Shown: positions 10,748-41,570, counted from the stretch's first letter. The stretch is DNA of 64,000 nt from a virus (IMGVR_UViG_3300045988_183636), one strand, 5' to 3'. The notes: generated by a model not told the origin, from the sequence alone. Numbers and translations are program-made.

Positions 10748-10973
10748 GTATTGAAAAGGCATAAAAGGATTCATGGTCCTGCCTTTTCCTGTGGAGATTC
10801 GTCTCTCCACAGACCTCCGAATTTTAAATGTATATCTATGACTGCGCTGTCCTCCTGTTACGGGGCAGTACAGGAGGGGTTCACAGAGCTTTGCCAGCAT
10901 TGGACACAAAGTGGCTGTTCATCCGGTTCGAGTTCGGAGGATTCCTTTCGTATAAGAAAAAAGGGGGGAAAGA

Positions 10974-11198
10974 ATGAGCAAAGAAGCATTAACTTTGGAA
11001 GAATTGAAAAACATGCAAGGACAGCCCGTGTGGTGCCCGGACCTCAACTCTTACGGCATCATCAAGTGTGACACGTCCGGGAAATGGAAGGGAATTCCCT
11101 ATATCCACGGTTCCCAGTATTTCCCGGAATTTGGAACCTCGACGGATTTTGAATACAACATCTTAGAGCGCGGACTTGTCTGCCAGCATATTCTCTGA
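10974..11198 (+). CDS. hypothetical small protein
   Basis: RBS AAGGGGGGAAAG before ATG. Confidence 0.5.
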   Translation: MSKEALTLEELKNMQGQPVWCPDLNSYGIIKCDTSGKWKGIPYIHGSQYFPEFGTSTDFEYNILERGLVCQHIL

Positions 11199-11321
11199 AC
11201 CGTGGAAAAGCTGGAAACCCGCAGAAAGGAAGAGGCGGTATGAGAAATGTGTGGCCAGTCCATGCTTTTGTTTTTACAGCATAATTGTAAATTGTTTGTG
11301 ATTTAAGGAGGAAAAAAGAAG

Positions 11322-12059
11322 ATGTTAAACAAGTATCTTGATTTGTTGCAGCATGCGACGGAGGCGATGACGAGTGTCGGAAAGACCGGGGCTGGAGCAG
11401 CTGAATATTTTCAGGCAGTTGGATATGAGTTTCTTGTTATTGGGCTTGGATTTTTGTATCTTGTAGGAATTGTTCTGTTGGTTGCAGGACCTGTACTGGT
11501 ATTTTACCATGGTGTCTTCAAAGCCGGGTTTGCTTCAAAGAAATTAAAGGAAATGTATATGATTGCGGAAGAGTATGTCAATGCAAGTAATCAATGTAAC
11601 GAATTACAGTATGATTTCGCTAACGATGGGAAGAAATGCCGTGTTGAAAATTTTGAGAAGCTGTGTGAATGTATCGGACAGTATTACAAAGCTTTCAGTA
11701 AGGATGTTGGATACGGAATGGTTCCAGGTGATACAATGGAAGAAAAGAAATGTTTTCTGAGAGAAACAAAACATCCTCACGATTTTTCATGCGGTCTTCC
11801 ACGCTTGTTTGGCATATATGGGTGGTCATTTGAGAGTAGTGAATATTCAAGAATTACTAAATGGAATTTATTCGCTGATATTGCCGCACCTGGAGAGGAA
11901 TCGTCAATATTTACGGGCCAGGTTAAGAAGCTGTACCCATCATCAGGCGCATTCCTTCATGACGTTAAAATTTTCAAGGCAAAATGTATATCGATCATGG
12001 CTGCGACGGTGGTCCTATATGCAATCTTTGTGCTTCCACTGTGCCTTATGTTCTTCTAG
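11322..12059 (+). CDS. hypothetical membrane protein
   Basis: RBS TAAGGAGG; hydrophobic segments. Confidence 0.55.
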   Translation: MLNKYLDLLQHATEAMTSVGKTGAGAAEYFQAVGYEFLVIGLGFLYLVGIVLLVAGPVLVFYHGVFKAGFASKKLKEMYMIAEEYVNASNQCNELQYDFANDGKKCRVENFEKLCECIGQYYKAFSKDVGYGMVPGDTMEEKKCFLRETKHPHDFSCGLPRLFGIYGWSFESSEYSRITKWNLFADIAAPGEESSIFTGQVKKLYPSSGAFLHDVKIFKAKCISIMAATVVLYAIFVLPLCLMFF

Positions 12060-12133
12060 GCTATCCAAATTTCGCATGAGAGAGGGGGAAATTTTTTCCC
12101 TCTCTTTTTTTTATAAATTTCTCCCGAATTCCT

Positions 12134-12162
12134 TTGACGATTCCCCAAATGGCGCAATATTT
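12134..12162 (+). promoter_or_regulatory. class-1 promoter
   Basis: ttgacgattccccaaatggcgcaatatttgt. Confidence 0.55.
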
Positions 12163-12208
12163 GTATTAGAAAAACATAAATAAGCATTCGTTCGAAAGGA
12201 AAATTCGT

Positions 12209-12454
12209 ATGTGTAAAAAGAGGGTGAGAGGGAAAGGGAGGAAAACAAAGAAACAGCGGGAAAATCTTTACCGGTGTGGAAACGGAGAGAAAGTCCTGTT
12301 TTCGTATTCCAAGAAGCGTAAGATGGACAGAAAATCTCATGTTTCAAGCATTGCATGTGCAAGGAAAGCGGGAAAAAATTACTGGGATATGTGGGGCAGG
12401 GGTTACCCGAACCGTTCAAGAATCAGAGCGTATTTTACGTATCTGCGAATATAG
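12209..12454 (+). CDS. possible small highly basic protein
   Basis: AAAGGA RBS 8 nt before ATG; ~350 nt promoter-to-terminator unit; a degenerate copy of the first ~65 nt recurs at 53031 with an immediate stop. Confidence 0.3.
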   Translation: MCKKRVRGKGRKTKKQRENLYRCGNGEKVLFSYSKKRKMDRKSHVSSIACARKAGKNYWDMWGRGYPNRSRIRAYFTYLRI

Positions 12455-12479
12455 CATTTTAAGGAAAACTCACTAATTC

Positions 12480-12503
12480 CCACAGGAAAACCTGTGGTTT
12501 TTC
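12480..12503 (+). terminator. rho-independent terminator
   Basis: cccacaggaaaacctgtggttttt. Confidence 0.6.
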
Positions 12504-12593
12504 GCCACAATTTTATAACTCAAAACAAAAAATTTGTGAATGATTGGATTATCTGGATATTTTTTGCTAAAGGATCATTTGGAGGTATTGTAT

Positions 12594-13058
12594 ATGAGAA
12601 TTCCATTACCGTGTAAGTTTGGAGAAACATTTGGGTATAAGGGGAAAAGCCTGAAATTATTGAGTGTATCATGGTTTAAATGGTCGTATAAGGGTTTGGA
12701 ATTTACGTATACCACGGATAAGGAATTTGTCACTAGCACCGATATGAATCAGCCGGAGTATATGGAAATTCCAGATGAAATGATTAAATCGTGTCAAATT
12801 AAAGGTCTTGGCTATCCTTTGAAGGGGATTGGCTATGTAGCAGGAATTCAATTTCGGGAAGGTCGTTTGTTCGCCGATATCATCGTTGAGAGTAGATATT
12901 TAATACATATTCTTTGCGAGTGTGATGGAGATGGGAAATATAAGAAGAATGGTGAAATTCAATTTCCACCGGTTCCAAGTTTTGAAACGGATGAGAAACG
13001 AAAGGCAGCGGTCTTAAAGCAGTTTTATAATGTACCTTTTGGAACTATCAAATTGTAA
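12594..13058 (+). CDS. hypothetical protein
   Basis: start moved to MRIPLP with RBS TGGAGG. Confidence 0.5.
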   Translation: MRIPLPCKFGETFGYKGKSLKLLSVSWFKWSYKGLEFTYTTDKEFVTSTDMNQPEYMEIPDEMIKSCQIKGLGYPLKGIGYVAGIQFREGRLFADIIVESRYLIHILCECDGDGKYKKNGEIQFPPVPSFETDEKRKAAVLKQFYNVPFGTIKL

Positions 13059-13084
13059 GGTATGCATGAGAAAGAGGGAATGTA

Positions 13085-13414
13085 ATGAGATTAATTAACA
13101 AAAACAAAGGAACTCCGTTTGCAGATGTAGGTGCATACGTTTGCGAGCTTACCGACGAATTGGATGCTCTTGCGAAGACTGTGTCAGACGCAAGTGTCAA
13201 CCGGCACTATATTTTGGCGGATGAATTCTGTAAAAGGAATAAATGCCTTGCAATCCGTATACCAGGCTGCACTTTGGGCGGAATACATTACAACCACGGC
13301 AATATTGTTACAGGAATCGAAATTAATACAGACTGCGTCAATAAGATATATTTATTGAACGCAAAAGAACTGGTTAATAAATACATCGGAGATAAAATTG
13401 AGTTTGAAAAATAA
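13085..13414 (+). CDS. hypothetical protein
   Basis: 109-aa ORF with RBS GAGGGAATG. Confidence 0.5.
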   Translation: MRLINKNKGTPFADVGAYVCELTDELDALAKTVSDASVNRHYILADEFCKRNKCLAIRIPGCTLGGIHYNHGNIVTGIEINTDCVNKIYLLNAKELVNKYIGDKIEFEK

Positions 13415-13831
13415 GTTTCTCTGGTAAGTTTCGGAGGAAGAAAAAAGGAGAATCATGGAAATGGAAGTATGGCCAGTTCTAACTGATAAAAGCCGAGCAA
13501 TTACTTTCTGCCTGCTGGCATTTCTATATCAATCAGGTATTTCATATTAAAGTTAAATAAAGGGAGCATCTTTAAAATTTTCCCTTTAAAATATACAAAG
13601 GACTGGTACAACATATGAGAACAGAAACAACTAGCATTTCGGCAAGAAGAAAGAAAAAGACGAATACAGAACTTAATAAGGTTAATCATGAGGCGCGTGC
13701 GCGGGGCATGTCGTATGGACAGTATTCATCCAAGGCGTATGCCCCGGTGGTTGAAAAAAGAGGAAGAATTGTGTAAGGATGTACTTTGATTGATCAAAGC
13801 TAGTTAACACAAAAATAGCAAGCAGTTTCTC

Positions 13832-13868
13832 GTTTCCAGAAATTCTGGGAAAGAAACTGCTTTTTGTA
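13832..13868. terminator. bidirectional terminator
   Basis: aagcagtttctcgtttccagaaattctgggaaagaaactgcttttt. Confidence 0.6.
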
Positions 13869-13890
13869 TACATTGAATGCCTTGGCTGCA

Positions 13891-16527
13891 TCAGAGGTAT
13901 TCGTCGATGTCGTCGTAGTCCTCACGGGTATCTGCCATATCCTCGCATCTTCCCGTTACTTCCGGGGCGGTCGCCTCATGCTCATCTTCGAGGTCTTTCA
14001 GACGGCTGCCGCTTACCATTACATAGGCATCCTTCGTGGAAAGATTTTCGCGGGAGAAAGCGAGAAGGTCTTCTTCGGATGGTTCGGAGAAGAAACTGCC
14101 GATCTCCGGGAGTTCGCCGTGTTCCTTCACATAATTGTCGTAGGCTTCTTGAAAGTACAACTCCACGGAGTTGTTGTATTTCAGGACGGAACAGGACTCG
14201 TCCGCATCAGTATAGGGGGCAATTTCCTCCAACAAATCTTCTTTGGCATTAACTTCTCCAGCTGCGATCGCTTCATACAAATCACACAGATTTGGATATT
14301 TTTCTTCATATTCGCTGTTGAGAAAACCTACAATATTGTCGTTATCCAATATAACCAGTAAATCTCCGGTAAGAGGCGGCGTCATTCCTGCAAATTGACG
14401 GATGTTGTCATTTACCATCTCGTTGTAACCATTTCCCATAAGTACATCCGGGTACGGGGCCTCTTCGCACCACTTTGCAAGCACCGGGGCAAACTGGTCA
14501 ATCTGTCGGTCATCCGCAAACTCGATGTTGTCAAAGACGAGCTTCCCGCCATCTGCAGTCTGCCATGCTTCCGCCTGCGCAAGAATCTTCCCAGATGTTT
14601 TGTCTTCGATCACAAAGAATCCGGCATCCGGGTTTGCCAGTCCATATATCATGGCTGTTTCTCCTGCGCCCCTAAGATGCTGGCAGCAATTAGTGTCATA
14701 ACCGATCATGACCTGCCGCGGGTCTTTGGCGTCCATGATGTAGGCTCTGTAATCGCCAAGTTCCACCTCCGTTGTTGGAAGGGTGCATTTACAGTCGGCA
14801 AACTTAAAATCCGGATATGACTTTTCGATTTCCTGAATTTCAAGCAGTGCCCTCCCTCTTGAAATCTGTGCTCTTACAGCATCTACATTGTCTGATGCAT
14901 CAATGGTGATACTGTTCTTGTATTTAACGATATCCTTTACCAGATTCTGGCTGACATCTGGATGAAAAGCTACCCATTTGGCAAGATCTTTTAAATGTTC
15001 GTCGTTCTTTTGGCAGCTTTCACATAACAGGACGGAAGCATAATCTTTATGTGGATTTTCAAGGATGACATTCTTTACGGTGTTTACATCGAAGTTCATT
15101 GCAAACAGTGTCGCTTCCACATCACAGAACCGGTTCCCTTTATTACAGGAACGCATCGCCATGACTGCATCACGGAACTTCTTTTCCTCGAAGGATTTTA
15201 CGATATCCTCTGGCGCAATGTCTAACTCTGTGGAAGCGATGGTAAGGGCATCGATGATCTTTGGCACCACACCGCAGCTTCTTTTGTCTAAACGGAACAA
15301 CGCCGTCAGCTGTTCTTTCGCTTTTGCATCCACGCTGTTTTTGATGTTGTAAAACCCGATGGCCTGGAAATCCTTTTTGAACTGCACTGCTGTTTGTTCC
15401 AGCTTCCCACTATGTTCCGCATTACAGAGCTTGGATACCAGAACCGGGGAATATACATCTTTTCCAAGGATATCGGCAGCTTCTTTTGCGATATCCAGAC
15501 ACTTCTGGTCCTCAAGTCCGTCTGACTGTTCCTGCGTTAGAGTAAAAGCTTTGTATGTAATATCTGATCCCCTGTAATTGATCACAAGGTCATCGGAACA
15601 GCCATTAAGGGCATCGCAAAATGTCAGGTCATCCGGCAAATGAAGTTCCTTTAAACCGGAACAATTTTCTAATGCACCCAAACCAAGATTTTTAACACCA
15701 TCTGGAATAGCAATGGATGTTAAATTGACGCAATCCTTAAATGCATAGGCTTGAATCTCTGTCGTCTGATCTGGAACTTTAATTTTTTCCAGAGAGCTAC
15801 ATCCTGCGAATGCGGCTCTCTCAATACGCGTCACACTGTCTGGAATCTTAACGGAATGCAGCTTCCTGCAATCTTGAAATGTGCTCGCCTCAATATCGGT
15901 TATCCCATCCGGAATGGCAACAGAACTTAATTTGTTACAGCCCGAAAACGCATTTTTCTCAATACGTGTCACACTGTCCGGAATTTCAATTTTTTCTAAC
16001 GAGTTGCAGCCAGCAAATGCACTATAGTTGATAGCGGTTACGCTATCTGGAATTTTAACAGAGGATAGACTGCTACAATCTTCAAATAGACTGTTCTCAA
16101 TATTTGTTACTCTATTCGGTATTTCAATATGAGTTAACCCGGTGCATCCGTAAAATGCACCTTCTTCAACGCTTGTCACGCTATCCGGAATATCGATTTC
16201 TGTTAAAGAGACACATTCACCTAATGCGCCTGCACCGATCCTTGCCACGCTTTCTGGAATTTTCACACTTTTTAATGCATCGCAGCCGTAGAATGTACTT
16301 TCTCCAATGGATACAACGCCATCTGGAATAACAACAGATGTTAATTCTTTGCACCAGGAAAATGCTCCATTTTTAATCCCTGTTAATTTACATTCTTCTC
16401 CTTTATAAATCACTTTCTCTGGAAGTACCACATCGCCTTTTTTGGGAATTGGCTTTCCTGTTGCGGCATCCACACAGCCAGCGAAATTTTCCTCCGTAAG
16501 TTCAAATTCTTTCAATTTTTTTGTCAC
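13891..16527 (-). CDS. large BspA-type leucine-rich-repeat protein (N-terminal LRR_5 repeats, large C-terminal domain of unknown function)
   Basis: about ten tandem IPD(S/G)VT.I...AF..C..L repeats in the N-terminal 300 aa; 878 aa in total. Confidence 0.7.
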   Translation of the reverse strand: MTKKLKEFELTEENFAGCVDAATGKPIPKKGDVVLPEKVIYKGEECKLTGIKNGAFSWCKELTSVVIPDGVVSIGESTFYGCDALKSVKIPESVARIGAGALGECVSLTEIDIPDSVTSVEEGAFYGCTGLTHIEIPNRVTNIENSLFEDCSSLSSVKIPDSVTAINYSAFAGCNSLEKIEIPDSVTRIEKNAFSGCNKLSSVAIPDGITDIEASTFQDCRKLHSVKIPDSVTRIERAAFAGCSSLEKIKVPDQTTEIQAYAFKDCVNLTSIAIPDGVKNLGLGALENCSGLKELHLPDDLTFCDALNGCSDDLVINYRGSDITYKAFTLTQEQSDGLEDQKCLDIAKEAADILGKDVYSPVLVSKLCNAEHSGKLEQTAVQFKKDFQAIGFYNIKNSVDAKAKEQLTALFRLDKRSCGVVPKIIDALTIASTELDIAPEDIVKSFEEKKFRDAVMAMRSCNKGNRFCDVEATLFAMNFDVNTVKNVILENPHKDYASVLLCESCQKNDEHLKDLAKWVAFHPDVSQNLVKDIVKYKNSITIDASDNVDAVRAQISRGRALLEIQEIEKSYPDFKFADCKCTLPTTEVELGDYRAYIMDAKDPRQVMIGYDTNCCQHLRGAGETAMIYGLANPDAGFFVIEDKTSGKILAQAEAWQTADGGKLVFDNIEFADDRQIDQFAPVLAKWCEEAPYPDVLMGNGYNEMVNDNIRQFAGMTPPLTGDLLVILDNDNIVGFLNSEYEEKYPNLCDLYEAIAAGEVNAKEDLLEEIAPYTDADESCSVLKYNNSVELYFQEAYDNYVKEHGELPEIGSFFSEPSEEDLLAFSRENLSTKDAYVMVSGSRLKDLEDEHEATAPEVTGRCEDMADTREDYDDIDEYL

Positions 16528-16539
16528 CTCTATTTTCTT

Positions 16540-16566
16540 CGTAGTCCTGTATATCTTTAATATGCA
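16540..16566 (-). promoter_or_regulatory. variant class-2-like motif upstream of the LRR gene
   Basis: the reverse complement reads ttgcatattaaagatatacagg; RBS AGAGGTG. Confidence 0.3.
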
Positions 16567-16592
16567 ACAAGAAAAGTTTGCGGCGCTTTTTT

Positions 16593-16615
16593 CATCTCAT
16601 ATTCCTGATGTAAAC
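16593..16615 (+). promoter_or_regulatory. class-2 promoter-like motif
   Basis: catctcatattcctgatgtaaac then CGAAAGGAG. Confidence 0.5.
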
Positions 16616-16647
16616 AAATTTTGAAAATCGAAAGGAGATAATTTATT

Positions 16648-24265: not shown

Positions 24266-24499
24266 GTTGCACCACGCAAGGGTGCAGGGGTGAAATATTA
24301 TACTGAATCGTCGCTGCCTGCATAGATATAGTTGCATCCCTTATGGGATGTATGGGTTGAAATTCAATAGAAACAGATGCATTCGGAGGTGTTACAAGTT
24401 GCACCCCCGCAAGGGGTGCATGGGTTGAAAATAAGAAATGGTAGGAAGGAATTCAGATATGAACATTAGTTGCATCCCGCAAGGGTGCAGGGGTGAAGT
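24266..24499 (+). CRISPR. CRISPR mini-array 1 (type I-C-like repeats, 4 divergent repeats, 3 spacers)
   Basis: GTTGCACCACGCAAGGGTGCAGGGGTGAAAT / GTTGCATCCCTTATGGGATGTATGGGTTGAAAT / GTTGCACCCCCGCAAGGGGTGCATGGGTTGAAAAT / GTTGCATCCCGCAAGGGTGCAGGGGTGAAGT; spacer 2 is shared with array 4. Confidence 0.7.
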
Positions 24500-34737: not shown

Positions 34738-34812
34738 GGGACTCGAACCCTTAACCGACAGATTAGAAATCTGTTGCTCTTTCCAATTGAGCTATGGGGA
34801 TATATAGCGCAG
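34738..34812 (-). tRNA. tRNA-Arg (UCU)
   Basis: D-arm GCTC..GAGC; anticodon loop UUUCUAA in stem ACAGA/UCUGU; T-arm AAGGG-TTCGAGT-CCCTT. Confidence 0.65.
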
Positions 34813-34818
34813 ACACCG

Positions 34819-34907
34819 GGGATCGAACCCGGACAGCGGGTGTGCCGCATGCCACATTAGCAGTGTGGAGGGGTACCATTTACCTTTATATGTCTGCATA
34901 AGAGGCA
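34819..34907 (-). tRNA. tRNA-Ser (GCU), long variable arm
   Basis: 89 nt; anticodon loop CUGCUAA in stem CCACA/UGUGG; T-arm CCGGG-TTCGATC-CCCGG. Confidence 0.55.
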
Positions 34908-34984: not shown

Positions 34985-35014
34985 TCCCGATAAGAGAAGA
35001 TGAGCGCTGGGGCA

Positions 35015-35098: not shown

Positions 35099-35333
35099 GC
35101 ATACACCTCTCAATCGAAAGATGTATGCTTTGCAATTCCAGGTATTTCCAATATTCTCCCGGAAATTTCCCTACAATGACCACATTTCTTTCAATTTGAG
35201 ACAATATTTATTTGCACGACAACTACGCCAGATACATGACTGCGACTGACTCATACTTGCCTGTGAATATTGTCTCATTACTGCTGTAATCATTGATTTT
35301 CCCTTCCTTTCCTTGGTTTTCTTGAATATTTAG

Positions 35334-35407
35334 TGTGTCTGGTGGGACTTGAACCCGACGACCCCACGATTAAAAGTCGCGTGCTCTGCCAACTGAGCTA
35401 CAGACAC
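35334..35407 (-). tRNA. tRNA-Lys (UUU)
   Basis: canonical fold: acceptor GTGTCTG/CAGACAC, D-arm AGCTCAGTTGGCAGAGC, anticodon loop CUUUUAA. Confidence 0.7.
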
Positions 35408-35412
35408 ATAAG

Positions 35413-35484
35413 CGGATCAGGAGGGAATCGAACCCTCATCTTCCGGTAGACAGCCGGATGTACTAGCCGCTATACTACAGATCC
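35413..35484 (-). tRNA. tRNA-Asp (GUC)
   Basis: anticodon loop CUGUCUA in stem UCCGG/CCGGA; T-arm GAGGG-TTCGATT-CCCTC. Confidence 0.6.
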
Positions 35485-35488
35485 ATAA

Positions 35489-35561
35489 AGCTCCCGTCCG
35501 GCTTCGAACCGGAAACCTTCTGATTACAAGTCAGATGCACTACCAGTTGTGCTACAGGAGC
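35489..35561 (-). tRNA. tRNA-Thr (UGU)
   Basis: D-arm GCACAACTGGTAGTGC; anticodon loop CUUGUAA; T-arm TCCGG-TTCGAAG-CCGGA. Confidence 0.65.
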
Positions 35562-35567
35562 AGGAAC

Positions 35568-35638
35568 ACTTCCGACGGGTGCTGCCCCGCTATCTCCGCC
35601 GTGACAGGGCGGTGACTCTGTTGTTTGTCCTCGGAAGT
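35568..35638 (-). ncRNA. non-canonical tRNA-like element (8-bp acceptor-like stem, anticodon-like arm CCGCC-CUGUCAC-GGCGG, 4-bp T-like hairpin, no D-arm)
   Basis: ACTTCCGA...TCGGAAGT closing stem; sits inside the tRNA array at tRNA spacing. Confidence 0.35.
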
Positions 35639-35645
35639 AAATAAG

Positions 35646-35727
35646 TGCGCCGGGGAGGACTCGAACCTCCGGTGTTTCTTTGTGGCTGATTTACAGTCAG
35701 CTGCTGTCGCCTCTGAGCCACCGACGC
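35646..35727 (-). tRNA. tRNA-Tyr (GUA), long variable arm
   Basis: 82 nt; anticodon loop CUGUAAA in stem GCUGA/UCAGC; T-arm GGAGG-TTCGAGT-CCTCC. Confidence 0.6.
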
Positions 35728-35732
35728 ATAAG

Positions 35733-35804
35733 CTGGTCCGGAGGGTCTCGAACCCTCAACGCCCCGGTTAACAGCCGGGTGCTCTACCATTGAGCTACGG
35801 ATCA
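35733..35804 (-). tRNA. tRNA-Asn (GUU)
   Basis: D-arm AGCTCAATGGTAGAGC; anticodon loop CUGUUAA; T-arm GAGGG-TTCGAGA-CCCTC. Confidence 0.65.
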
Positions 35805-35805
35805 G

Positions 35806-35877
35806 AGCATGTGACGGGTCTCGAACCCGCCCGTCCTGCTTGGAAGGCAGGTGTGCCGCCAACAACACTTCACATGC
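35806..35877 (-). tRNA. tRNA-Gly (UCC)
   Basis: anticodon loop CUUCCAA in stem CCUGC/GCAGG; T-arm with TTCGAGA loop. Confidence 0.6.
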
Positions 35878-35942
35878 ATGCGGATAAAAGAAGTGCCTGT
35901 TTTCTCTTATCCATTCAGTTTTTTTACCGCATCGCTGCGGAG

Positions 35943-36014
35943 TGGACAGGAGTGGTAACGATCCACCCTGTAAGGATTTTCAGTCCTTCGCTAATCCATC
36001 TCAGCTACCTGTCC
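35943..36014 (-). tRNA. putative tRNA-Phe (GAA) with a non-canonical T-loop (ATCGTTA)
   Basis: perfect 7-bp acceptor GGACAGG/CCTGTCC, U8, anticodon stem AAGGA/UCCUU with loop CUGAAAA; lacks the TTCGA T-loop signature. Confidence 0.4.
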
Positions 36015-36460
36015 ATGGCTTTTTCTGCAATAAAAAAGCCGCATCAAGAAATTTCCTCTTCTCTCTGCGGTCATCTGCGTTTTGCAATATTTCGGTTTTA
36101 AGTGCCTGGTTTAAAATCGAAATCGACCGCGGGAAGGTGTATCATAATAGTTCTGTCCCCATGTTTTCCCGGATTTTGAGCATGAGAAACTAAACATATT
36201 GCTGAAATCGCCGTATGTTCTACAATCATTATTAAAATTTTTACTACTCATCATCTTTAACATGGTTTTCTTTTCCTTTCATTTTAATTAATGCTGGATA
36301 AACAAAAAGCCCGTCACTTAACTCAAAGCTACACATCCAAATAGCTCTGAGTTAAAAGACAGGCACTTCTTTTATCTCATGCACCTATCATATCATACTG
36401 ATCGTGAAGTGTCAACAGGAAATTTAAAAAAGGTTATTTTTGGTTATTTTGGTTATTTTT

Positions 36461-36500
36461 CAAAATAAAACAAAATAAAACAAAATAAAACAAATAAAAA
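36461..36500. repeat. short tandem repeat (AAAACAAAAT)n x4
   Basis: caaaataaaacaaaataaaacaaaataaaacaaataaaaa. Confidence 0.6.
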
Positions 36501-36530
36501 TCTCCGCCAAAATAGACGGAGATTTGAAAA
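36500..36530. terminator. terminator hairpin downstream of the minus-strand gene
   Basis: aatctccgccaaaatagacggagattt. Confidence 0.5.
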
Positions 36531-37151
36531 TTAACAGGTTAATTCGTAGTCGTACAGATCGAGCGGCGTTTTGTTTCCGCTGGACCACTCAAACTCTTCG
36601 TTGTCCCAAATGCTGCGGGCGTTGTTCAGATTGATCTCATCCGTCAATACCTTTTCTTCGATATTAATGAACCGTTCCAAAGATTCTTTGAAGCGGTTGA
36701 TGACTTCCTCGGGATTCTTTGAATGCCAGCTGTATTCGTCGAAAAACCTTCCACTGGCGGTAATTGTTAATTTCTCGCCGTTATCCGACAATCCAGATAG
36801 TTCAAGTGTAACCATTCCCTCGGAAATATCGCTATAATATTCGCCTGGTTTGTTGGTATCGTTGATTTTGTTCCCTAGTTCTTCCGCTTTTTCCATCATG
36901 CCCCAAATTTCCCCTGGAAGCGTAAGGTAGTCTTCTGGATAGTATTCCACGGTTGGGTTGATTTCCTCTTGCAGGAGATCTTCAACAAAATTGTCTCCTT
37001 TAAAAATAGCAAAAGAGTCGACACCTCTTGCGGAAACCTCAACTTTCCCGCATTTGCATGGGAATATTTTAAAAAGTCTTCTATCTCGAGTGTCATAAGC
37101 TACTGAAAAAATGCCGCATTCTTTGCATTTAAAATTTCTTTGTGTTTTCAT
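36531..37151 (-). CDS. hypothetical protein with an N-terminal zinc-ribbon
   Basis: start moved to MKTQRNFKCKECG (RBS GAAGGGAG); minus-strand class-2 motif at 37180..37200. Confidence 0.55.
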   Translation of the reverse strand: MKTQRNFKCKECGIFSVAYDTRDRRLFKIFPCKCGKVEVSARGVDSFAIFKGDNFVEDLLQEEINPTVEYYPEDYLTLPGEIWGMMEKAEELGNKINDTNKPGEYYSDISEGMVTLELSGLSDNGEKLTITASGRFFDEYSWHSKNPEEVINRFKESLERFINIEEKVLTDEINLNNARSIWDNEEFEWSSGNKTPLDLYDYELTC

Positions 37152-37179
37152 GATTTTTCTCCCTTCATCAATGGTTTTA

Positions 37180-37200
37180 TTTACACTTTTAATATGAAAT
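37180..37200 (-). promoter_or_regulatory. class-2 promoter-like motif (minus strand)
   Basis: the reverse complement reads atttcatattaaaagtgtaaa. Confidence 0.45.
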
Positions 37201-37234
37201 ATTAAAAATATTTCAAAAAATTTCCCGGAAATTT

Positions 37235-37266
37235 TTGACGAAATTTCAAAAGGCGCAATATATGTA
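37235..37266 (+). promoter_or_regulatory. class-1 promoter
   Basis: ttgacgaaatttcaaaaggcgcaatatatgta. Confidence 0.6.
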
Positions 37267-37289
37267 ATGAAAGGAGGAGGAAATACAAA

Positions 37290-37622
37290 TTGAAATGTTT
37301 GACATGCAAGAAACACTGGTCGCAGGGAGGCCGCTGTTCAGAGAACGTGAGAAACTGCCTGCATTATGAGGAAGAACCAAGAGGAAAAATGGTCCGCACA
37401 GAACTGTCTTTTCGTATGGATGCAGAGGCGGAAACTCCGGTGGTCAGATTTGGAGAGAAAATACTGGTTTCCGATGGTTCAAAAGCGGTCGAGATGACTG
37501 TGGTCAAGATCAACTGGGTTAATCTTCGGGATATGCTCTGCAATGTATCCGCGGATTATCATGAGAATGAGATGCCGCGATTTGAGAAAGAAAAGAAGTT
37601 CAAAGCATTACATGGAAAATAG
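37290..37622 (+). CDS. hypothetical protein
   Basis: RBS AAAGGAGGAGG; 110 aa; stop abuts CRISPR mini-array 2. Confidence 0.5.
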   Translation: MKCLTCKKHWSQGGRCSENVRNCLHYEEEPRGKMVRTELSFRMDAEAETPVVRFGEKILVSDGSKAVEMTVVKINWVNLRDMLCNVSADYHENEMPRFEKEKKFKALHGK

Positions 37623-37728
37623 TTGCATTCCAGTGGAATGCATGGGGTGAAAGAAATAGGCAAATCGCATGACAATTTCTGAAATTAAATTGTTGCGCTC
37701 CCGTGGAGGGGGGCGTATGGATTGAAAT
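37622..37728 (+). CRISPR. CRISPR mini-array 2 (2 divergent I-C-like repeats, 1 spacer)
   Basis: GTTGCATTCCAGTGGAATGCATGGGGTGAAAG ... GTTGCGCTCCCGTGGAGGGGGGCGTATGGATTGAAAT. Confidence 0.55.
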
Positions 37729-37781
37729 GTGGAATCCTGTGATTGGCACATACTTGGGTGTAGTGCAGAAAAAGTGACCCA

Positions 37782-38057
37782 TTACAGATCACTTTCGATG
37801 AAAATTTGCTTTGCGATTTTTCCGATCACCCAATTTGGAATGTCGCTGCGGCATCCAGAATGGATTTCTCCGTTTTCAACAAAAAAGAATGCGGATTCTT
37901 CCGTTTTCATGCGGTCTAAAGCTTGCGCAGAAAAATATAAGGAATGGTGGAAGTCGCATCTTTGTGCCTCCTCATATGTATGGACTTCCTCTATTTTCCC
38001 ATCGATCAGGCTGACACAGCCGGACCAGAACTCTTTTCCTTCGAATATTGCTGCCAT
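37782..38057 (-). CDS. hypothetical small protein
   Basis: RBS GAAAGGAG; minus-strand class-2 motif at 38083..38105. Confidence 0.5.
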   Translation of the reverse strand: MAAIFEGKEFWSGCVSLIDGKIEEVHTYEEAQRCDFHHSLYFSAQALDRMKTEESAFFFVENGEIHSGCRSDIPNWVIGKIAKQIFIESDL

Positions 38058-38082
38058 GTTTTGCTCCTTTCAAAATACTTTC

Positions 38083-38105
38083 GTTTACACTTTCAATATG
38101 AAATG
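38083..38105 (-). promoter_or_regulatory. class-2 promoter-like motif (minus strand)
   Basis: the reverse complement reads catttcatattgaaagtgtaaac. Confidence 0.45.
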
Positions 38106-38134
38106 AAAATATTTCAAAACATTTCCAAAAACTT

Positions 38135-38167
38135 TTGACGATTTTTTAAATGGCGCAATATGTATCA
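38135..38167 (+). promoter_or_regulatory. class-1 promoter
   Basis: ttgacgattttttaaatggcgcaatatgtatca. Confidence 0.6.
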
Positions 38168-38168
38168 T

Positions 38169-38316
38169 GTAAAGGTCATAAACCGAGCTGCCAGGGTTAT
38201 CGGCTGGCAGAAATCTTTTCGATATTTGTTTACACTCCGGGGAAACCCGGAAGGGGTAGTGAGGACGCAGCGTGTGCTGTTTCCGGGTTCGATTCCCGGG
38301 TATCCCTTTTGACTGC
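38169..38316 (+). ncRNA. conserved structured 5' leader, copy C (tRNA-like minihelix GGGTA..CCGGGTTCGATTCCCGG..TATCCC), part of a ~420 nt 5' UTR
   Basis: near-identical to copies A and B over ~95 nt, then a hairpin plus acceptor/T-arm module. Confidence 0.5.
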
Positions 38317-38585
38317 CACATACGGTCTTCTCAAAATTCAGCCGTCTGCGGCCTGTGGAACTTTCCACTGGACCAAAATAACGATAACCGCCAGAATAAC
38401 AGCAGCGTGCGTTGGCGTGAGAACTATCGGCGCACAGGGATTACTCCTTTCATATTTATCTATCAAACCTTTCCGTACATCGTATGGAAAGGTTATGGGA
38501 CAGCAGGTGCATAGACATGAACTATTCCGGGATCGTTTCCCGGATGTTCCATTTTTAAAACATTAAAACAAATCATAGGAGGGAA

Positions 38586-39314
38586 TTGATGATGGAGAAA
38601 GAAGTAGTATATGTTGCAGAACTGGATTCCGATGTTGATGATGTCGTTGCGGCACATTACTTATTTAACGAGGGTGTGTTAAAGTGTGTAGTATGCGATC
38701 CATATCCAAGAACACCGGAGGGGTTGGCACGAAAGGGAAAGCTGGAAGCGCTTGGCATCGATGTGGTTAAGAAAATGCCACCGGTTGCAAAATATGTGTT
38801 TGTTGGCGGCGCTCTTACGGCTGTTGCTGGCTATATCCGGATGCACCATGTCGACTGGCTGGTAATGAACGGAGGCTTTGTTGGAGCAAATATTGCGACC
38901 TTTGAACTGGATAAGTTCAAGGGGAAGAACACTGTCCGTACCTTCAATTTCAACTGCGATGTTGTGGCTGCAGATACGGTTTTGAAAACTGATGAGAAGC
39001 ATATTTCTCATATTGTTCTTGTCGGAAAAAACGTCTGCCATGACGTCCGAAATACGAAAAATGGTCTCTGGAGTGGCGAGAAATACAAGAAATTGTTCGA
39101 TGAGTACCGGGTTAAGGATGAGAAGCGTCAACACGACTTGCTTGCCTGCCATGAGGGGCTTGCATTTCTGCGGGGAACCAATGCGATCTGTGAGTATGAG
39201 ATGGTAAGACCATACAACACAGGCTTGAATGGCAAGCTGACGCAGTGGGGTAGCACAAAAACCATGGAAACACCATATCGCGAAGTGCTTGCTGCTGTTG
39301 GCTACCAGAATTAA
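38586..39314 (+). CDS. hypothetical protein (possible Rossmann-like fold)
   Basis: RBS TAGGAGGGAATTG; 242 aa; stop abuts CRISPR mini-array 3. Confidence 0.55.
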   Translation: MMMEKEVVYVAELDSDVDDVVAAHYLFNEGVLKCVVCDPYPRTPEGLARKGKLEALGIDVVKKMPPVAKYVFVGGALTAVAGYIRMHHVDWLVMNGGFVGANIATFELDKFKGKNTVRTFNFNCDVVAADTVLKTDEKHISHIVLVGKNVCHDVRNTKNGLWSGEKYKKLFDEYRVKDEKRQHDLLACHEGLAFLRGTNAICEYEMVRPYNTGLNGKLTQWGSTKTMETPYREVLAAVGYQN

Positions 39315-39316
39315 AA

Positions 39317-39420
39317 GCTGCATCATGTGCGGGGGTGTATGGATTGAAATGTCGGAGTATGGGTAAGAATCATATATATTCCTACGTTGTGCTCCTCCCG
39401 GTTGGTGCACGGGTTGAAAT
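39317..39420 (+). CRISPR. CRISPR mini-array 3 (2 divergent repeats, 1 spacer)
   Basis: GCTGCATCATGTGCGGGGGTGTATGGATTGAAAT ... GTTGTGCTCCTCCCGGTTGGTGCACGGGTTGAAAT. Confidence 0.5.
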
Positions 39421-39651
39421 ATAGTTCTAAAAATGGTTGGAAGACCTGTTTTTTGGTTACACCCATTGTCAGCTGTAAACCACAGTTAAGGCTTTCGGAT
39501 GCGGTTAAAGTTTAAAAAGGCAACACCGCCAGATGGCTGTTCCTTTCGCGCCCTGAGATCAAGAAATCATTATGGGGCGGGCACTTACCAAATGAACTTG
39601 AAAGAAAGATCTACGTGGAATCCATGATCCACAGGACAAAGGATAATCCCA

Positions 39652-40008
39652 TTGTCCTTTATGACTTTGATGACAGGTTTTACCAGTGCATGTACATGCT
39701 CCACTATGCGTGAAGATGGCACAGTCGCTGAAAGACGGTTCTTAAAACTCCCGGCAGAATACGACTCTCTGCAACATAAGATCGATCATATCAAACGTGC
39801 ACGGCACCATGGTTCCAGACGTGTTTCAAACCTCTGGGCATATGCAGACGACGTCAATAAAGACATTGTTGTAAAAACAGCCCAGTTTGTTACGGATACT
39901 GCCGTGCTGCATGTTAACAGCATGCAGTTGCGGTGTTATCACTGTGTCCTCAGTCAGCGAGTCCATACGGGAAAACAGGTATGGAAGCACGCGAATTTAG
40001 TCATGTGA
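39652..40008 (+). CDS. hypothetical protein
   Basis: 118-aa ORF without a clear RBS; low-complexity N-terminus. Confidence 0.25.
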   Translation: MSFMTLMTGFTSACTCSTMREDGTVAERRFLKLPAEYDSLQHKIDHIKRARHHGSRRVSNLWAYADDVNKDIVVKTAQFVTDTAVLHVNSMQLRCYHCVLSQRVHTGKQVWKHANLVM

Positions 40009-40118
40009 GACTTCACGGCCGGCCGCCGAAAGGACGTACACTACAAAAGCCTTTTGCACCTGACTTTTCTGTGGTATACTGAAAATATAAAAGATATTTC
40101 AAGGAGAAGGCAGAGAAA

Positions 40119-40991
40119 ATGAGAAAAAGTGTGAAAGATTTTGGAAATTTTGTAAGAAAAGACAATTACCCGGAGCTTCCAGAAGAATTGAAAGAATTTA
40201 ACTATTTTTTGAGTGATGGCGAGACGGGACATGTGATCATGGCTGTGCCTGAGCACACTTTGAATAAAGCAGAAGAAAATGTGGATGAACTGGATGATTA
40301 CGAATGTCCAGTTCCAGTGGCATATGTTCTTAAGAATGGCTATCGGCTGTATAAGAACCATGTAATATGCCAGGTTCCGTACGATGAGAAACTGGGGGTG
40401 CGTATTCCGGAAGAATATTACGAACCGTCGATTATTTCTACAGATGCCGGGGAAGCAGAGAATCCGGTGTCCGGAGAGTTCCCTTATGAGAAAAGGAAAT
40501 GCTATCCAGAATTTGCAAACCATGCAGAAGCTGTAGTTGCGGATATCGTTAAGGATTACGTGCAGATCCGCGTATTTTTTAAAAATCCTACAGAAAACGA
40601 GATTGCACAGTTTTCTCCGGATGCCAGACTGAAAATTCGTTTTACGGAGATGGATGGAACCTGTCTGTTTACCGTTAAAGCTGGTGATTTGTCATGGATG
40701 GATGCACCATACCATGCAAAACTTGCAAAAGATTTGTCTGGATTCGACTTTACAGGTGAAAGTGAGATTCCGTTATATCTCCTCCTGATCGACTCATCGA
40801 ATGGTGAGGTCAAAGCGGTTCGAAATGTCCAGTTGTCAGAAGAGTTTTCCAGCAAATTGAGAAATCTGGTGGATCGTCAGGTCAACTCTGATTTTGATAA
40901 AAAGAAATATGCGGATATATTGTCCAACATTTATCTCCTTTTTTCATCGGATGAGCTGGCGGATGCCAGCACCATTAAGTGTCAGTGGTAG
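40119..40991 (+). CDS. hypothetical protein
   Basis: RBS CAAGGAGAAGG; 290 aa; stop abuts CRISPR mini-array 4. Confidence 0.55.
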   Translation: MRKSVKDFGNFVRKDNYPELPEELKEFNYFLSDGETGHVIMAVPEHTLNKAEENVDELDDYECPVPVAYVLKNGYRLYKNHVICQVPYDEKLGVRIPEEYYEPSIISTDAGEAENPVSGEFPYEKRKCYPEFANHAEAVVADIVKDYVQIRVFFKNPTENEIAQFSPDARLKIRFTEMDGTCLFTVKAGDLSWMDAPYHAKLAKDLSGFDFTGESEIPLYLLLIDSSNGEVKAVRNVQLSEEFSSKLRNLVDRQVNSDFDKKKYADILSNIYLLFSSDELADASTIKCQW

Positions 40992-41011
40992 GTAAGAAGA
41001 TATACTTTACT

Positions 41012-41230
41012 GTTGCGCCCCATTGGGTGCATGGGTTGAAATCTTTATGACCTTCTGAAAAGTGAGGGCATCTTAGTTGCACCCCCGCAAGGGATGTATG
41101 GGTTGAAATTCAATAGAAACAGATGCATTCGAAGGCGTTACAAGTTGCACCCCGCGAGGGGTGTATGGGTTGAAATTGCAGAAAGCTCAGGATTGGAAGG
41201 TTGCATCCTATGGGATGCATGGATTGAAAC
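41012..41230 (+). CRISPR. CRISPR mini-array 4 (4 divergent repeats, 3 spacers; spacer 2 is almost identical to array-1 spacer 2)
   Basis: GTTGCGCCCCATTGGGTGCATGGGTTGAAAT / GTTGCACCCCCGCAAGGGATGTATGGGTTGAAAT / GTTGCACCCCGCGAGGGGTGTATGGGTTGAAAT / GTTGCATCCTATGGGATGCATGGATTGAAAC. Confidence 0.65.
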
Positions 41231-41261
41231 GAACATATTTGTTATTATTTATTATTGAGAT

Positions 41262-41304
41262 CAGAAAGGTCTGCAGTCAGTTAATCTGGCTGCAGATTTT
41301 TTTT
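41262..41304 (+). terminator. rho-independent terminator
   Basis: tctgcagtcagttaatctggctgcagatttttttt. Confidence 0.6.
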
Positions 41305-41333
41305 GCAATTTTTTAAAAATTTTCCAAAATCTT

Positions 41334-41365
41334 TTGACGATTTTTTAAAAGGCGCAATATACATA
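41334..41365 (+). promoter_or_regulatory. class-1 promoter driving an ORF-less transcript
   Basis: ttgacgattttttaaaaggcgcaatatacata. Confidence 0.55.
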
Positions 41366-41369
41366 TTGA

Positions 41370-41570
41370 AGGGATAAACAGGGGCTTACCGTTTGTTTCT
41401 TCAATAAGAGTTTTTCTCTTATATGCCTCCTTAAGTTTCCTGCGCTGCATTTACAGCATTTTGGCAGCGCAGGGGGAATCCACAGGACTGCATTTGACGT
41501 TGTGTGGCGGCCTGCTCATCCGGTTCAACCCCGGAGGATTCCCTTACCGCTTATTTTTGCGGAGACAAAA
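41370..41570 (+). ncRNA. putative small non-coding RNA with a tRNA-like module (7-bp acceptor-like stem GGAATCC/GGATTCC, T-arm TCCGG-TTCAACC-CCGGA) and a terminal hairpin
   Basis: promoter to terminator-like hairpin with no ORF; the T-arm region ctgctcatccggttcaaccccggaggattccc is homologous to ctgttcatccggttcgagttcggaggattcc in the leader at 10925. Confidence 0.4.

Follow-up and report, generated by a model that had tools for sequence, protein, structure and literature searches.

Conserved tRNA-like modules in repeated leaders of a gut mobile element: a possible signal for RNA processing

What kind of RNA is encoded by two homologous strings with a tRNA-like T-arm that lie behind a repeated promoter in a large uncultivated gut mobile element, most likely a phage? 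We addressed this question in a window of 64,000 nucleotides, the whole stretch of DNA analyzed, and refer to the two copies and their units as 10k and 41k after their positions (Table 1). As originally predicted, both strings are present and homologous (10915-10945 and 41512-41543), although the positions assigned to them were off by ~3 to 10 nt. The sequence CATCCGGTTCrAnyyCGGAGGATTCC was found at 10920-10945 and 41517-41542 and at no third site in the window, with 0 occurrences expected from shuffled sequences. Each copy does form the 5-bp stem and 7-nt loop claimed for it (TCCGG / TTCGAGT or TTCAACC / yCGGA), and in the 41k unit the upstream GGAATCC at 41475-41481 pairs with GGATTCC to give a 7-bp acceptor-like stem. 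The equivalent 5' strand of the 10k unit, GGGGTTC, had been missed; its pairing with GGATTCC includes two G:U wobbles and one U:G wobble. At the DNA level, the T-arm is a palindrome.

The acceptor-like helix closes a three-way junction (10876-10945 and 41475-41542) and is directly abutted by the T-stem. This geometry is that of canonical tRNAs, with 7 + 5 bp, a 7-nt UUCRANY loop and a T-stem contiguous with the acceptor, and the internal length of 37 to 39 nt is as in real tRNAs. The helix gains three further pairs (-1:73 to -3:75); the eighth pair of the 41k acceptor is G-1:C73, and the 10k helix can be extended to 10873/10948. MFE folding gives the three-way junction for the 41k copy and for lineages L007, L003, and L018, the middle arm being weak in three of four lineages, and the stability of the module alone is little above that of shuffled sequences (z = -0.5 to -2.5). 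On the plus strand, a structural descriptor (a 7-bp acceptor running directly into a 5-bp/7-nt T-arm) matched both modules and two other sites, likely by chance, and on the minus strand it matched the real tRNAs; shuffled windows gave ~0.9 matches. The motif GGTTCRANYCC occurs on the plus strand in the modules only and on the minus strand in tRNAs only; it is exact in the 41k copy, L003, L007, and L033, and the 10k copy is a one-G:U variant.

Table 1. Features of the two leader units and of their surroundings in the window
Feature	Position	Strand	Remarks
tRNA nucleotidyltransferase (CCA-adding enzyme)	3114-4496	+	phrog_2244, E = 1e-72; Pfam PolyA_pol, tRNA_NucTran2_2, HD
Class-1 promoter, 10k unit	10719-10745	+	TTGACG-N13-GGCGCAATAT
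Hairpin P1, 10k leader	10753-10788	+	MFE and centroid folds
Hairpin P2, 10k leader	10789-10812	+	MFE and centroid folds
CCTCC linker, 10k	10814-10818	+	Invariant in all lineages; complementary to GGAGG at T-stem/acceptor junction
Hairpin P3, 10k	10842-10875	+	Abuts acceptor 5' side
tRNA-like module, 10k copy	10876-10945	+	Descriptor match, CM 83 bits, pair counts, segment conservation
Acceptor 5' strand, 10k	10876-10882	+	GGGGTTC
Middle arm, 10k	10884-10917	+	
Junction, 10k	10918-10921	+	TTCA
T-arm, 10k	10922-10938	+	
Acceptor 3' strand, 10k	10939-10945	+	GGATTCC
74-aa ORF	10974-11198	+	Served by 10k leader; phrog_32198, E = 8e-25
Intrinsic terminator	41263-41303	+	18-bp stem and T-run; called strong by scan; upstream of 41k unit
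Hairpin P1, 41k leader	41367-41403	+	
Hairpin P2, 41k leader	41404-41422	+	
CCTCC linker, 41k	41426-41430	+	
Hairpin P3, 41k leader	41439-41473	+	
tRNA-like module, 41k copy	41474-41543	+	Fold, descriptor, CM 83.7 bits
Acceptor 5' strand, 41k	41474-41481	+	(G)GGAATCC
Middle arm, 41k	41483-41514	+	
Junction, 41k	41515-41518	+	CTCA
T-arm, 41k	41519-41535	+	Loop TTCAACC
Acceptor 3' strand, 41k	41536-41543	+	GGATTCC(C)
Originally predicted hairpin	41547-41562	+	AGACAAAAATTTT follows; implausible as a terminator
Second class-1 promoter, tandem	41596-41622	+	Drives cas operon leader
Degenerate CRISPR repeat	41676-41708		3' of second promoter
cas5d	41716-42390		cas operon
cas8c	42387-44126		cas operon
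cas7	44077-45039		cas operon

We then asked whether the modules belong to a known RNA class. A genuine tRNA was defined by a cloverleaf with D-arm and anticodon arm, called by ARAGORN or matching Rfam RF00005 with at least 29 bits. ARAGORN found no gene at either site with default or lowered thresholds, and Rfam gave no tRNA match at either site even at E <= 10. In mitochondrial mode, ARAGORN reported the 41k copy only. It drew a poor "tRNA-His(GTG)" in which two of the three D-stem pairs are G:U and the anticodon stem is mismatched. A tmRNA, which would couple the acceptor/T-arm to a tag reading frame, was called by neither program. The modules matched no Rfam family, and riboswitch or cis-regulatory leader families gave nothing at threshold and only noise at E <= 10. 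A bacterial Y RNA was also rejected: the Ro-binding motif GNCGAAN0-1G is absent from all five module-bearing leaders (the present two and leaders A to C), and the present pair has no Rfam match. No TROVE domain was detected by Pfam in the scanned ORFs of at least 430 aa, and PHROGs gave no Ro60/TROVE annotation for the other large ORFs, the smaller ones being partly scanned. The best subthreshold Rfam matches of leader C are all tRNA mimics, namely, the tRNA-like domain of Y RNA (the best, 19 bits against a cutoff of 80), tRNA-Sec, and mascRNA (RF01684, 14.1 bits). The fold of a t-element (7-bp acceptor continuing without a gap into a 5-bp T-stem, 7-nt T-loop of the GGTTCRANYCC type) was found at 10876-10945 and 41475-41542.

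The module is kept in four diverged gut-metagenome lineages and two paralogues. Its 31-nt 3' core is 81 to 97% identical, versus 18 to 65% for the flanking leader. Between the 10k copy and L007, identity reaches 97% in the core, 39 to 65% in other leader segments, and 76% in the coding sequence; for the paralogues, the values are 81 to 87% in the core and 18 to 46% elsewhere in the leader. As judged from these alignments, the 3' core is shown to be under strong purifying selection. In eight variants of the 10k/41k type, 98.6% of stem cells are paired and all variable stem positions still pair, including in L033, where two 3'-strand changes (GGGTTTC versus GGAATCC) retain pairing. Covariation within this set is not significant, since 61 to 89 of 500 shuffles match it and the changes are nearly all one-sided transitions. 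When leaders A to C were added, in an alignment curated by complementarity, 98.8% of cells were paired, 7 of 15 pairs showed double changes, and none of 500 shuffles reached the observed pairing or covariation score.

The two copies had been described as a second family of tRNA-like modules. The tRNA-like module with its acceptor-like stem holds, but a separate family is an overstatement, as the architecture is that of leaders A to C. A covariance model built from the present modules ranked leaders C, A, and B next, ahead of real tRNAs. In both groups, the outer T-stem is UCCGG/CCGGA, the acceptor has 7 bp and is abutted by a hairpin, and the 3' extension is rich in U. Such modules do lie behind five class-1 promoters; however, the module starts ~110 to 125 nt from the promoter, with three hairpins in between, and the transcripts would not begin with it. 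Homology between the 10k and 41k units extends beyond the quoted 31 nt to the whole ~190-nt leader, colinear from the promoter on, in the order P1, P2, and P3, with the invariant CCUCC linker, and then the module at the 3' end. The class-1 promoter is present in 10 copies at no more than 3 mismatches (0 expected by chance), with a weaker 11th copy at 58332-58388. In the 10k leader, P1 begins within a few nucleotides of the presumed transcript start. L007, L033, and the 41k unit build P1 and P2 from other sequences, and the P3 loop carries a ~540-nt insertion in L014, L017, and L021. The 74-aa ORF starts ~28 nt past the 10k module. Homologues of this ORF with 81 to 99% identity keep the leader, and those with 58 to 64% identity, in other elements, do not have it.

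The modules mimic the acceptor-stem/T-arm half of a tRNA, and the best explanation, to which we give a probability of about 0.4, is that they are tRNA-derived processing signals like the t-elements of plant mitochondria. Host RNase P would cut first, at the acceptor 5' end (near 10876 and 41474/41475), and would free a P1-P3 leader fragment. RNase Z would cut second, near 10946 and 41543/41544, on the 3' side of the discriminator, and would thereby set the 5' end of the downstream mRNA, either that of the 74-aa gene or of an RNA running toward cas5. The extended helix and the abutting P3 are atypical in this respect, as RNase P substrates usually have a single-stranded leader. The ~70-nt tRNA-like RNA so released could be tailed by a CCA-adding enzyme, possibly the element's own. 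The element has 14 to 15 tRNAs in total, the real tRNAs being on the minus strand; all 14 that were called have no encoded CCA and a T after the discriminator, and the modules are alike in both respects. The encoded CCA-adding enzyme is a possible partner of both the CCA-less tRNAs and the modules. There are precedents: t-elements in 5' leaders of plant mitochondria are cut by RNase Z and RNase P and receive nontemplated C, CC, or CA (PMC1920247), among YrlA RNAs, RNase P cleavage and CCA tailing are confined to the one whose acceptor has 7 bp (PMC4201824), and Bacillus subtilis RNase P cleaves CCA-less precursors and precedes RNase Z if the 5' extension is long (PMC1874595).

The main rival, which we regard as doubtful, is an unprocessed cis-regulatory leader acting as a conformational switch, an attenuator, or a protein-binding element. 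Two folds exclude each other, the three-way junction and one with CCUCC(G):(C)GGAGG pairing, and the pyrimidine-rich 3' strand of the acceptor can pair with the purine-rich ribosome-binding region, so that a ligand, a protein, or cotranscriptional kinetics would pick the fold and tune translation or read-through. Neither CCUCC nor GGAGG varies in any lineage, and this pairing (CCUCCG:CGGAGG) is the MFE choice for the 10k copy and L033; it destroys the T-arm and counts against processing. The invariance of the T-stem and 3' strand at the sequence level likewise exceeds what RNase P/Z recognition, or any purely structural processing signal, needs. Pairing of the 3' strand with the Shine-Dalgarno region, as read from the sequences, is possible in all three gene-linked lineages (UUCCUUUC/GGGGGGAA, UUCCUUU/AGAGGAA, and UUUCUUUC/GAAAGAGA), although such purine/pyrimidine complementarity easily arises by chance. 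The terminator scan marked the 10k T-arm with its TTT tail as weakly terminator-like. However, no Rfam riboswitch or leader family matched, the linker pairing is reduced to 5 bp without compensation in L007 and the 41k copy, module and start codon are anywhere from ~28 to 270 nt apart among the five leaders, and the 41k unit is gene-less. A regulatory switch also leaves the canonical tRNA geometry and internal length unexplained.

The original prediction viewed the 41k unit (41365-41570) as a stand-alone gene for a ~200-nt small RNA that starts from its own promoter and stops at a hairpin. Its class-1 promoter (41334-41360) is an exact match to the consensus, and the unit contains neither a credible ORF nor a toxin-like mini-ORF: the sole frame common to the 41k and 10k copies stops after 14 codons in the latter, and the T-loop differences would be nonsynonymous in it. 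The fold of the whole unit is strong (MFE = centroid, z = -5.1), and the unit is nearly identical in five metagenomic contigs, which are too alike to reveal selection on its 3' end. The proposed terminator, in contrast, found no support. The hairpin (CCGC 41547-41550 / GCGG 41559-41562) consists of 4 bp closing an 8-nt loop, no T-run adjoins it, and a scan for G+C-rich stems with a U-tract called nothing at 41545-41575. The same scan called a true terminator 250 nt upstream, which closes a CRISPR mini-array with repeats at 41012, 41076, 41144, and 41200. Because the scan left the hairpin uncalled while recognizing a true terminator, read-through into the 41596 promoter, 34 nt past the hairpin, and cas5 seems more likely than a discrete promoter-to-terminator RNA, and if a small RNA is made from the unit, processing would be its likelier source than termination. 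Moreover, the unit is colinear with the 10k 5' untranslated region (UTR), and 41307-41391 and 41569-41653 share 87% identity as tandem duplicates of the promoter and the first ~30 transcribed nucleotides. A terminator-bounded small RNA gene is therefore improbable; on the processing reading, the 41k unit would be a gene-less leader copy in tandem with the cas5-cas8c-cas7 promoter.

We also consider it quite unlikely that the modules act in trans as tRNA mimics, either as excised, CCA-tailed minihelices that are decoys or sinks for host factors recognizing the acceptor end, such as defense toxins or synthetases, or, for the 41k copy, as a CreT-like RNA that neighbors the cas operon and has its promoter guarded by a Cas3-less Cascade. 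Five copies stand behind one strong repeated promoter in an element that invests in tRNA supply and repair through its tRNAs and CCA-adding enzyme, and the gene-less 41k copy, with its 8-bp acceptor, sits between the mini-array and the cas operon. In a CreTA-like arrangement, a degenerate spacer between degenerate repeats would partly match the promoter of the small RNA gene at a PAM; here, one degenerate repeat lies at 41676-41708. A spacer of the main array (45529-45563, 4 kb away) matches 15/15 nt of the -35/upstream region of the 41334 promoter, but it is mismatched at position 1 and the target is flanked by TTT; the type I-C motif is TTC. Unlike described CreT RNAs, the 41k unit has no start codon or rare-codon toxin motif, the remaining copies lie in ordinary 5' UTRs, and the support is circumstantial throughout, with no defense target that can be named. 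Finally, a functionless tRNA-gene relic or a DNA-level site (an operator palindrome or an attP-like copy of a host tRNA 3' end, phage attP sites often copying tRNA 3' halves) would fit the tRNA-like internal length, which suggests descent from tRNA genes, and the palindromic T-arm, but is very improbable given a core conserved far above flanks and coding sequence, 5'-strand variation that always keeps RNA pairing (G:U included), five copies at the same place in leaders, no occurrence of the core in a real tRNA or prophage junction among 185,579 reference genomes, and a T-arm found in none of the element's own tRNAs.

The processing reading has parallels in known systems. In the phage transcripts P1/P7 C4, P4 CI, and tRNA-linked T4 RNAs, tRNA-like features recruit host RNase P and a small RNA is matured; these are antisense or immunity RNAs with other structures and are not known to carry a conserved acceptor and T-arm module that recurs across mRNA leaders. 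The eukaryotic mascRNA/MEN-beta (RF01684) differs from the modules in its 3'-end location and full cloverleaf, and it has no significant sequence match to them, the 10k/41k pair giving no match whatever. The Y RNAs YrlA and Yrn1, some of them phage encoded, resemble the modules in having a noncoding tRNA-like domain with a T-arm (PMC4201824), whereas the modules have no D-arm and are placed in predicted mRNA leaders, not in genes of their own. Compared with plant mitochondrial t-elements, the modules belong to a bacterial mobile element or phage, are preceded by a repeated promoter and by three further hairpins, and have a helix that continues beyond the 7-bp acceptor, and their cleavage is predicted. 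Like the modules, t-elements have a noncanonical tRNA-like fold of ~70 to 75 nt with a conserved GGTTCRANYCC T-arm and an acceptor. The t-elements lie in mRNA 5' leaders or 3' trailers, where RNase P and RNase Z make the transcript ends (PMC1920247).

The two leaders of family 2, one upstream of an ORF of 74 aa (10k unit) and one without a gene (41k unit), share the core CATCCGGTTCrAnyyCGGAGGATTCC, which occurs nowhere else in the window and for which the chance expectation is none. As stated in the original prediction, both copies contain a 5-bp stem (here TCCGG/yCGGA) and a 7-nt loop (TTCGAGT or TTCAACC). The sequence GGATTCC follows the T-stem directly, with no spacer. In the 41k unit, GGATTCC pairs with an upstream GGAATCC, as was also proposed. 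We found, in addition, that it pairs in the 10k unit with GGGGTTC via three wobbles (two G:U and one U:G), a pairing that had not been described. The geometry of the module is canonical, with 7 + 5 bp, a UUCRANY loop, and zero nt between the T-stem and the acceptor, and the acceptor helix can be extended by three pairs (-1:73 to -3:75). A structural descriptor (7-bp acceptor contiguous with a 5-bp/7-nt T-arm) retrieved the 10k and 41k sites plus two likely chance matches on the + strand and genuine tRNAs on the - strand, compared with ~0.9 matches in shuffled windows. The plant-mitochondrial T-arm motif GGTTCRANYCC was found on the + strand in leader modules only and on the - strand in tRNA genes only. 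The acceptor-to-T-arm distance is 37-39 nt in the modules versus 36-42 nt in the real tRNAs of the window, suggesting that the modules descend from a tRNA gene. Thermodynamic z-scores, which were weak for the isolated module and middle arm, were left out as evidence. Altogether, the observation of homologous tRNA-like modules was confirmed and extended, and the interpretation first given to it was partly supported.

The whole transcribed leader is colinear between the 10k and 41k units and is longer than the unit initially delimited. Both sites lie ~150-185 nt downstream of a class-1 promoter (TTGACG-N13-GGCGCAATAT). This promoter is repeated: ten copies, each of them on the + strand, have no more than 3 mismatches, and an eleventh copy is weaker. 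RNAalifold recovered the hairpins P1 and P2 only in part because the full-leader alignment drifts. Leader C, one of three other class-1 leaders with tRNA-like modules (A, B, and C), is long and ORF-less and carries a second, weaker T-arm copy that scores 8.7 bits with R1, the covariance model of the module. Three metagenomic copies contain a ~540-nt insertion in the P3 loop, bordered by hairpins of the sequence CCCAyAGGCTTGCCTGTGGG. The insertion shares end homology with an IS200/IS605-type element (Y1 transposase) and so probably derives from it as a non-autonomous form. The sole acceptor-breaking substitution seen (T to G) is in these three copies.

Elements of the family-2 leaders and other features discussed in the text (window positions unless a locus is named)
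Feature	Position	Description	Source
P1		first hairpin, few nt from presumed transcript start	predicted folds
P2		second leader hairpin, after P1	predicted folds
CCUCC linker		between P2 and P3, invariant	
P3		third hairpin, abuts acceptor helix	predicted folds
Three-way junction		acceptor helix, variable middle arm, and T-arm, after P3	predicted folds
Core	10920-10945; 41517-41542	10k; 41k	
5' acceptor strand	10876-10882; 41475-41481	10k; 41k	
Putative RNase P cut	~10876; 41474/41475	10k; 41k	
Putative RNase Z cut	~10946; 41543/41544	10k; 41k	
Proposed terminal hairpin	41547-41562	41k	
Strong terminator	41263-41303	closes four-repeat mini-array upstream of 41k unit	terminator scan
Degenerate CRISPR repeat	41676-41708	GTTGTGCCCCTATGGGGTGCATGGGTAATAAGAG, in leader between promoter 41596 and cas5	
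cas5d, cas8c, cas7	41716-45039	type I-C effector operon	
Arrays and mini-arrays (n = 5)	24266-24499; 37622-37728; 39317-39420; 41012-41230; 45290-46001		
Promoter-like spacer	45529-45563	main array	
Spacer in two mini-arrays	24364-24397; 41110-41143	32/34 nt identical	
Leader C	38162-38585		
Second T-arm copy in leader C	38483-38554	TTCCGGGATCGTTTCCCGGA	
Copies with P3-loop insertion	L014:3298-4043; L017:1867-2612(-); L021:356-1101(-)		
IS200/IS605-type element	L033:124-830		
CCA-adding enzyme	3114-4496	HD domain	
tRNA-Ser(GCT)	~34807-34897 (-)	in gap of tRNA array	
NAD-dependent DNA ligase	41-1564		
T-run/TTTCATATTnnnGGTGTAAAC motif	2216, 5571, 6201, 8087, 16577, 18589, 20835 (+); also 5535, 16548, 37180, 38084		
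Transposase segments	8770-9022; 63117-63369	phrog_506; ORF 8732-9994	

Neither the core nor the promoter had any match (0) when IMG/VR was scanned for exact patterns, and a search guided by the 74-aa protein gave none either. A Cas5d-guided search of the same database returned only the distant loci L001 and L002, and L001, the one inspected, is GC-rich and without the leader. We found no relative in IMG/VR, in GenBank phages, in PLSDB plasmids, or in 185,579 reference genomes, where the 4 matches all arose by chance in coding-like DNA. A metagenome scan yielded 22 loci, comprising 7 chance matches and 15 true relatives, which lie on contigs from the human gut, the longest measuring 212 kb; one further lineage, L033, was reached via an 85%-identical homologue of the 74-aa protein. 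Four diverged lineages are represented by the 10k unit, the metagenomic loci L007 and L033, and the 41k unit. Homologues of the 74-aa protein with 58-64% identity lie in tight operons without any leader, so the leader belongs to this element lineage and not to the protein family.

The 31-nt 3' core, which consists of CTGyTCA, the T-arm, and the 3' acceptor strand, is 97% identical between the 10k unit and L007, compared with 39-65% for the other leader segments and 76% for the coding sequence. Comparison of the paralogues gave 81-87% identity for the core, against 18-46% for the other leader segments. In eight family-2 variants, 98.6% of the stem cells pair, and every variable stem position is still paired, including two 3'-strand changes in L033. 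Covariation within family 2 alone was not significant (61-89/500 shuffles did as well) because the changes are one-sided transitions. A search with R1 revealed no further family-2 copy, and the next-best matches were leaders C, A, and B (22.7, 22.1, and 16.6 bits), ahead of genuine tRNAs (14.5 bits or less). Direct reading of leaders A-C showed that they share the outer T-stem UCCGG/CCGGA with family 2, plus one extra G:C pair. Their acceptor also has 7 bp, with a sequence that is quite different; their U-rich extension and acceptor-abutting hairpin are both as in family 2. We conclude that the modules ascribed to a second family are a variant of one architecture, the one also seen in leaders A-C. 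We then combined all eleven distinct modules in a curated, helix-only alignment, in which 98.8% of the cells pair, with the caveat that the 5' strands were chosen by complementarity. Compensatory double changes occurred in 7 of 15 pairs, and the observed pairing or covariation score was reached by 0/500 shuffles (3-8/500 with stricter measures). Judging from these comparisons, we conclude that the acceptor and T-arm minihelix is a real, selected RNA structure.

We favor, with a probability of about 0.4, the reading that the module is a t-element-like processing signal. RNase P would cut first and RNase Z second, which would free a ~70-nt tRNA-like RNA that might then be CCA-tailed. RNase P, RNase Z, and CCA-adding enzymes measure such a canonical 7 + 5 bp geometry (cf. 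PMC4201824). No CCA is encoded in any of the element's 14 called tRNAs or in any of the five modules, and in each of them the discriminator is followed by a U. RNase Z has a preference for U74. The element itself encodes a CCA-adding enzyme. In Bacillus subtilis, RNase P cleaves CCA-less precursors and, when the 5' extension is long, acts before RNase Z (PMC1874595). In plant mitochondria, the cox1 leader contains a tRNA-like fold of ~74 nt. RNase Z, directed by this fold, makes the cut from which the 5' end of the mRNA results, and nontemplated C, CC, or CA is present on the leader so released (PMC1920247). It is the combination of canonical geometry, CCA-less/U context, CCA-adding enzyme, and precedents from B. 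subtilis and t-elements that leads us to favor processing.

The main rival is that the leader works as an unprocessed regulatory switch. We regard this as rather unlikely and yet as a serious alternative, since the invariant linker, CCUCC(G), has its complement, (C)GGAGG, where the T-stem meets the acceptor, and since the three gene-linked lineages also allow pairing between the 3' strand, which is rich in pyrimidines, and the ribosome-binding region, which is rich in purines. The linker pairing wins in the minimum free energy folds of the 10k unit and L033, whereas L007 and the 41k unit fold as a tRNA-like junction. Moreover, both the extended helix with its abutting P3 and the conservation of the core at the sequence level beyond structural need are more in keeping with a general structured RNA than with a classical substrate of RNase P.

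The 41k unit is best seen as a copy of the family-2 leader that lacks a gene. It has a CRISPR mini-array of four repeats on one side and a tandem class-1 promoter, at 41596, on the other; the tandem duplication takes in the promoter plus the first ~30 transcribed nt, with 87% identity between the copies. The hairpin previously proposed to end the unit has a 4-bp stem and no U-tract and was not called by the terminator scan; read-through towards cas5 is more likely than termination. Promoter 41596 drives a degenerate CRISPR repeat, which resembles the repeat-like cas regulators of bioRxiv 10.1101/2023.03.03.530964, and then cas5d-cas8c-cas7. No cas3, cas1, cas2, or cas4 was identified among the window ORFs scanned (part of all), and nothing lies between cas7 and the main array. 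The array at 24266 directly follows the class-1 promoter P24161, and those at 37622 and 39317 lie downstream of genes driven by class-1 promoters. Repeats of one and the same array differ from one another to an unusual degree, and their stem sequences show compensatory changes. One spacer is present in two separate mini-arrays.

A main-array spacer matches the -35/upstream region of P41334, the promoter of the 41k unit, over 15/15 nt (41324-41338) and resembles the class-1 promoter at 24/35 nt overall. This promoter-like spacer suggests that Cascade may silence promoters of the element itself or of a rival element. We consider improbable both a trans-acting decoy and a CreT-like role of the gene-less 41k copy, the unit whose own promoter is the one matched. 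The odds are similarly long for a wider scheme in which the acceptor/T-arm half of a tRNA would be a reusable cassette in five class-1 leaders of this phage-like element, excised by host RNase P/Z and tailed by the CCA-adding enzyme of the element. The resulting CCA-ended minihelices would be abundant and act in trans, e.g., as decoys for acceptor-end-targeting defense toxins or synthetases, and the copy beside the Cas3-less type I-C operon might be controlled by Cascade via the promoter-matching spacer, in a CreTA-like guard circuit.

Other identities were rejected. ARAGORN and Rfam found no tRNA in the modules, the only cloverleaf being a poor mitochondrial-mode drawing of the 41k copy. This copy has G-1:C73 and GUG at the drawn anticodon position, and the tRNA array lacks a tRNA-His; a working tRNA-His was dismissed given the poor cloverleaf and the lack of these features in the other lineages. 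The module is not a tmRNA, nor is it a Y RNA, as the Ro-binding motif is absent and Rfam scores are sub-threshold; no TROVE protein was detected among large ORFs scanned with Pfam and the remainder checked with PHROGs only. The modules have no T-arm or acceptor in common with the element's own tRNAs, and an attP-like copy of a known host tRNA was dropped because the chance matches in reference genomes included no tRNA or prophage. A small protein or peptide was discarded for want of a conserved ORF, and the 41k unit is ORF-less, as originally stated. The element's CRISPR spacers gave no match to the modules. The module RNA is conserved and absent from Rfam.

Several further features of the window were recorded. 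A 15th tRNA, Ser(GCT) with a long variable arm, was missed by default ARAGORN and at the Rfam gathering score and was found by lowered-threshold ARAGORN and the descriptor. A further motif that recurs between genes consists of a T-run and then TTTCATATTnnnGGTGTAAAC; it has many occurrences, also as the reverse complement TTTACAnnTTTAATATGAAAT, and may be another promoter or terminator class. Two segments that are parts of an IS-type transposase gene are 98% identical, indicating that a mobile element is present at least twice in the window. An NAD-dependent DNA ligase is also encoded.

Our verdict is that the modules are best seen as a tRNA-like processing or mimicry element. If the CCUCC/GGAGG fold is what matters, a T-loop would be the centerpiece of a new structured regulatory leader. 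If the modules are instead cut by RNase P and RNase Z, the mobile element would borrow host tRNA maturation to give several of its mRNAs their 5' ends, including the transcript leading into its CRISPR-Cas operon. The module would then be a compact natural processing cassette of ~70 nt with clear cleavage sites, and tRNA repair would no longer be the only reason for large phages to carry CCA-adding enzymes. A direct precedent for such processing signals exists in the t-elements of plant mitochondria, and cleaved modules would be the counterpart, in a bacterial virus, of these elements and of tRNA punctuation in organelles.
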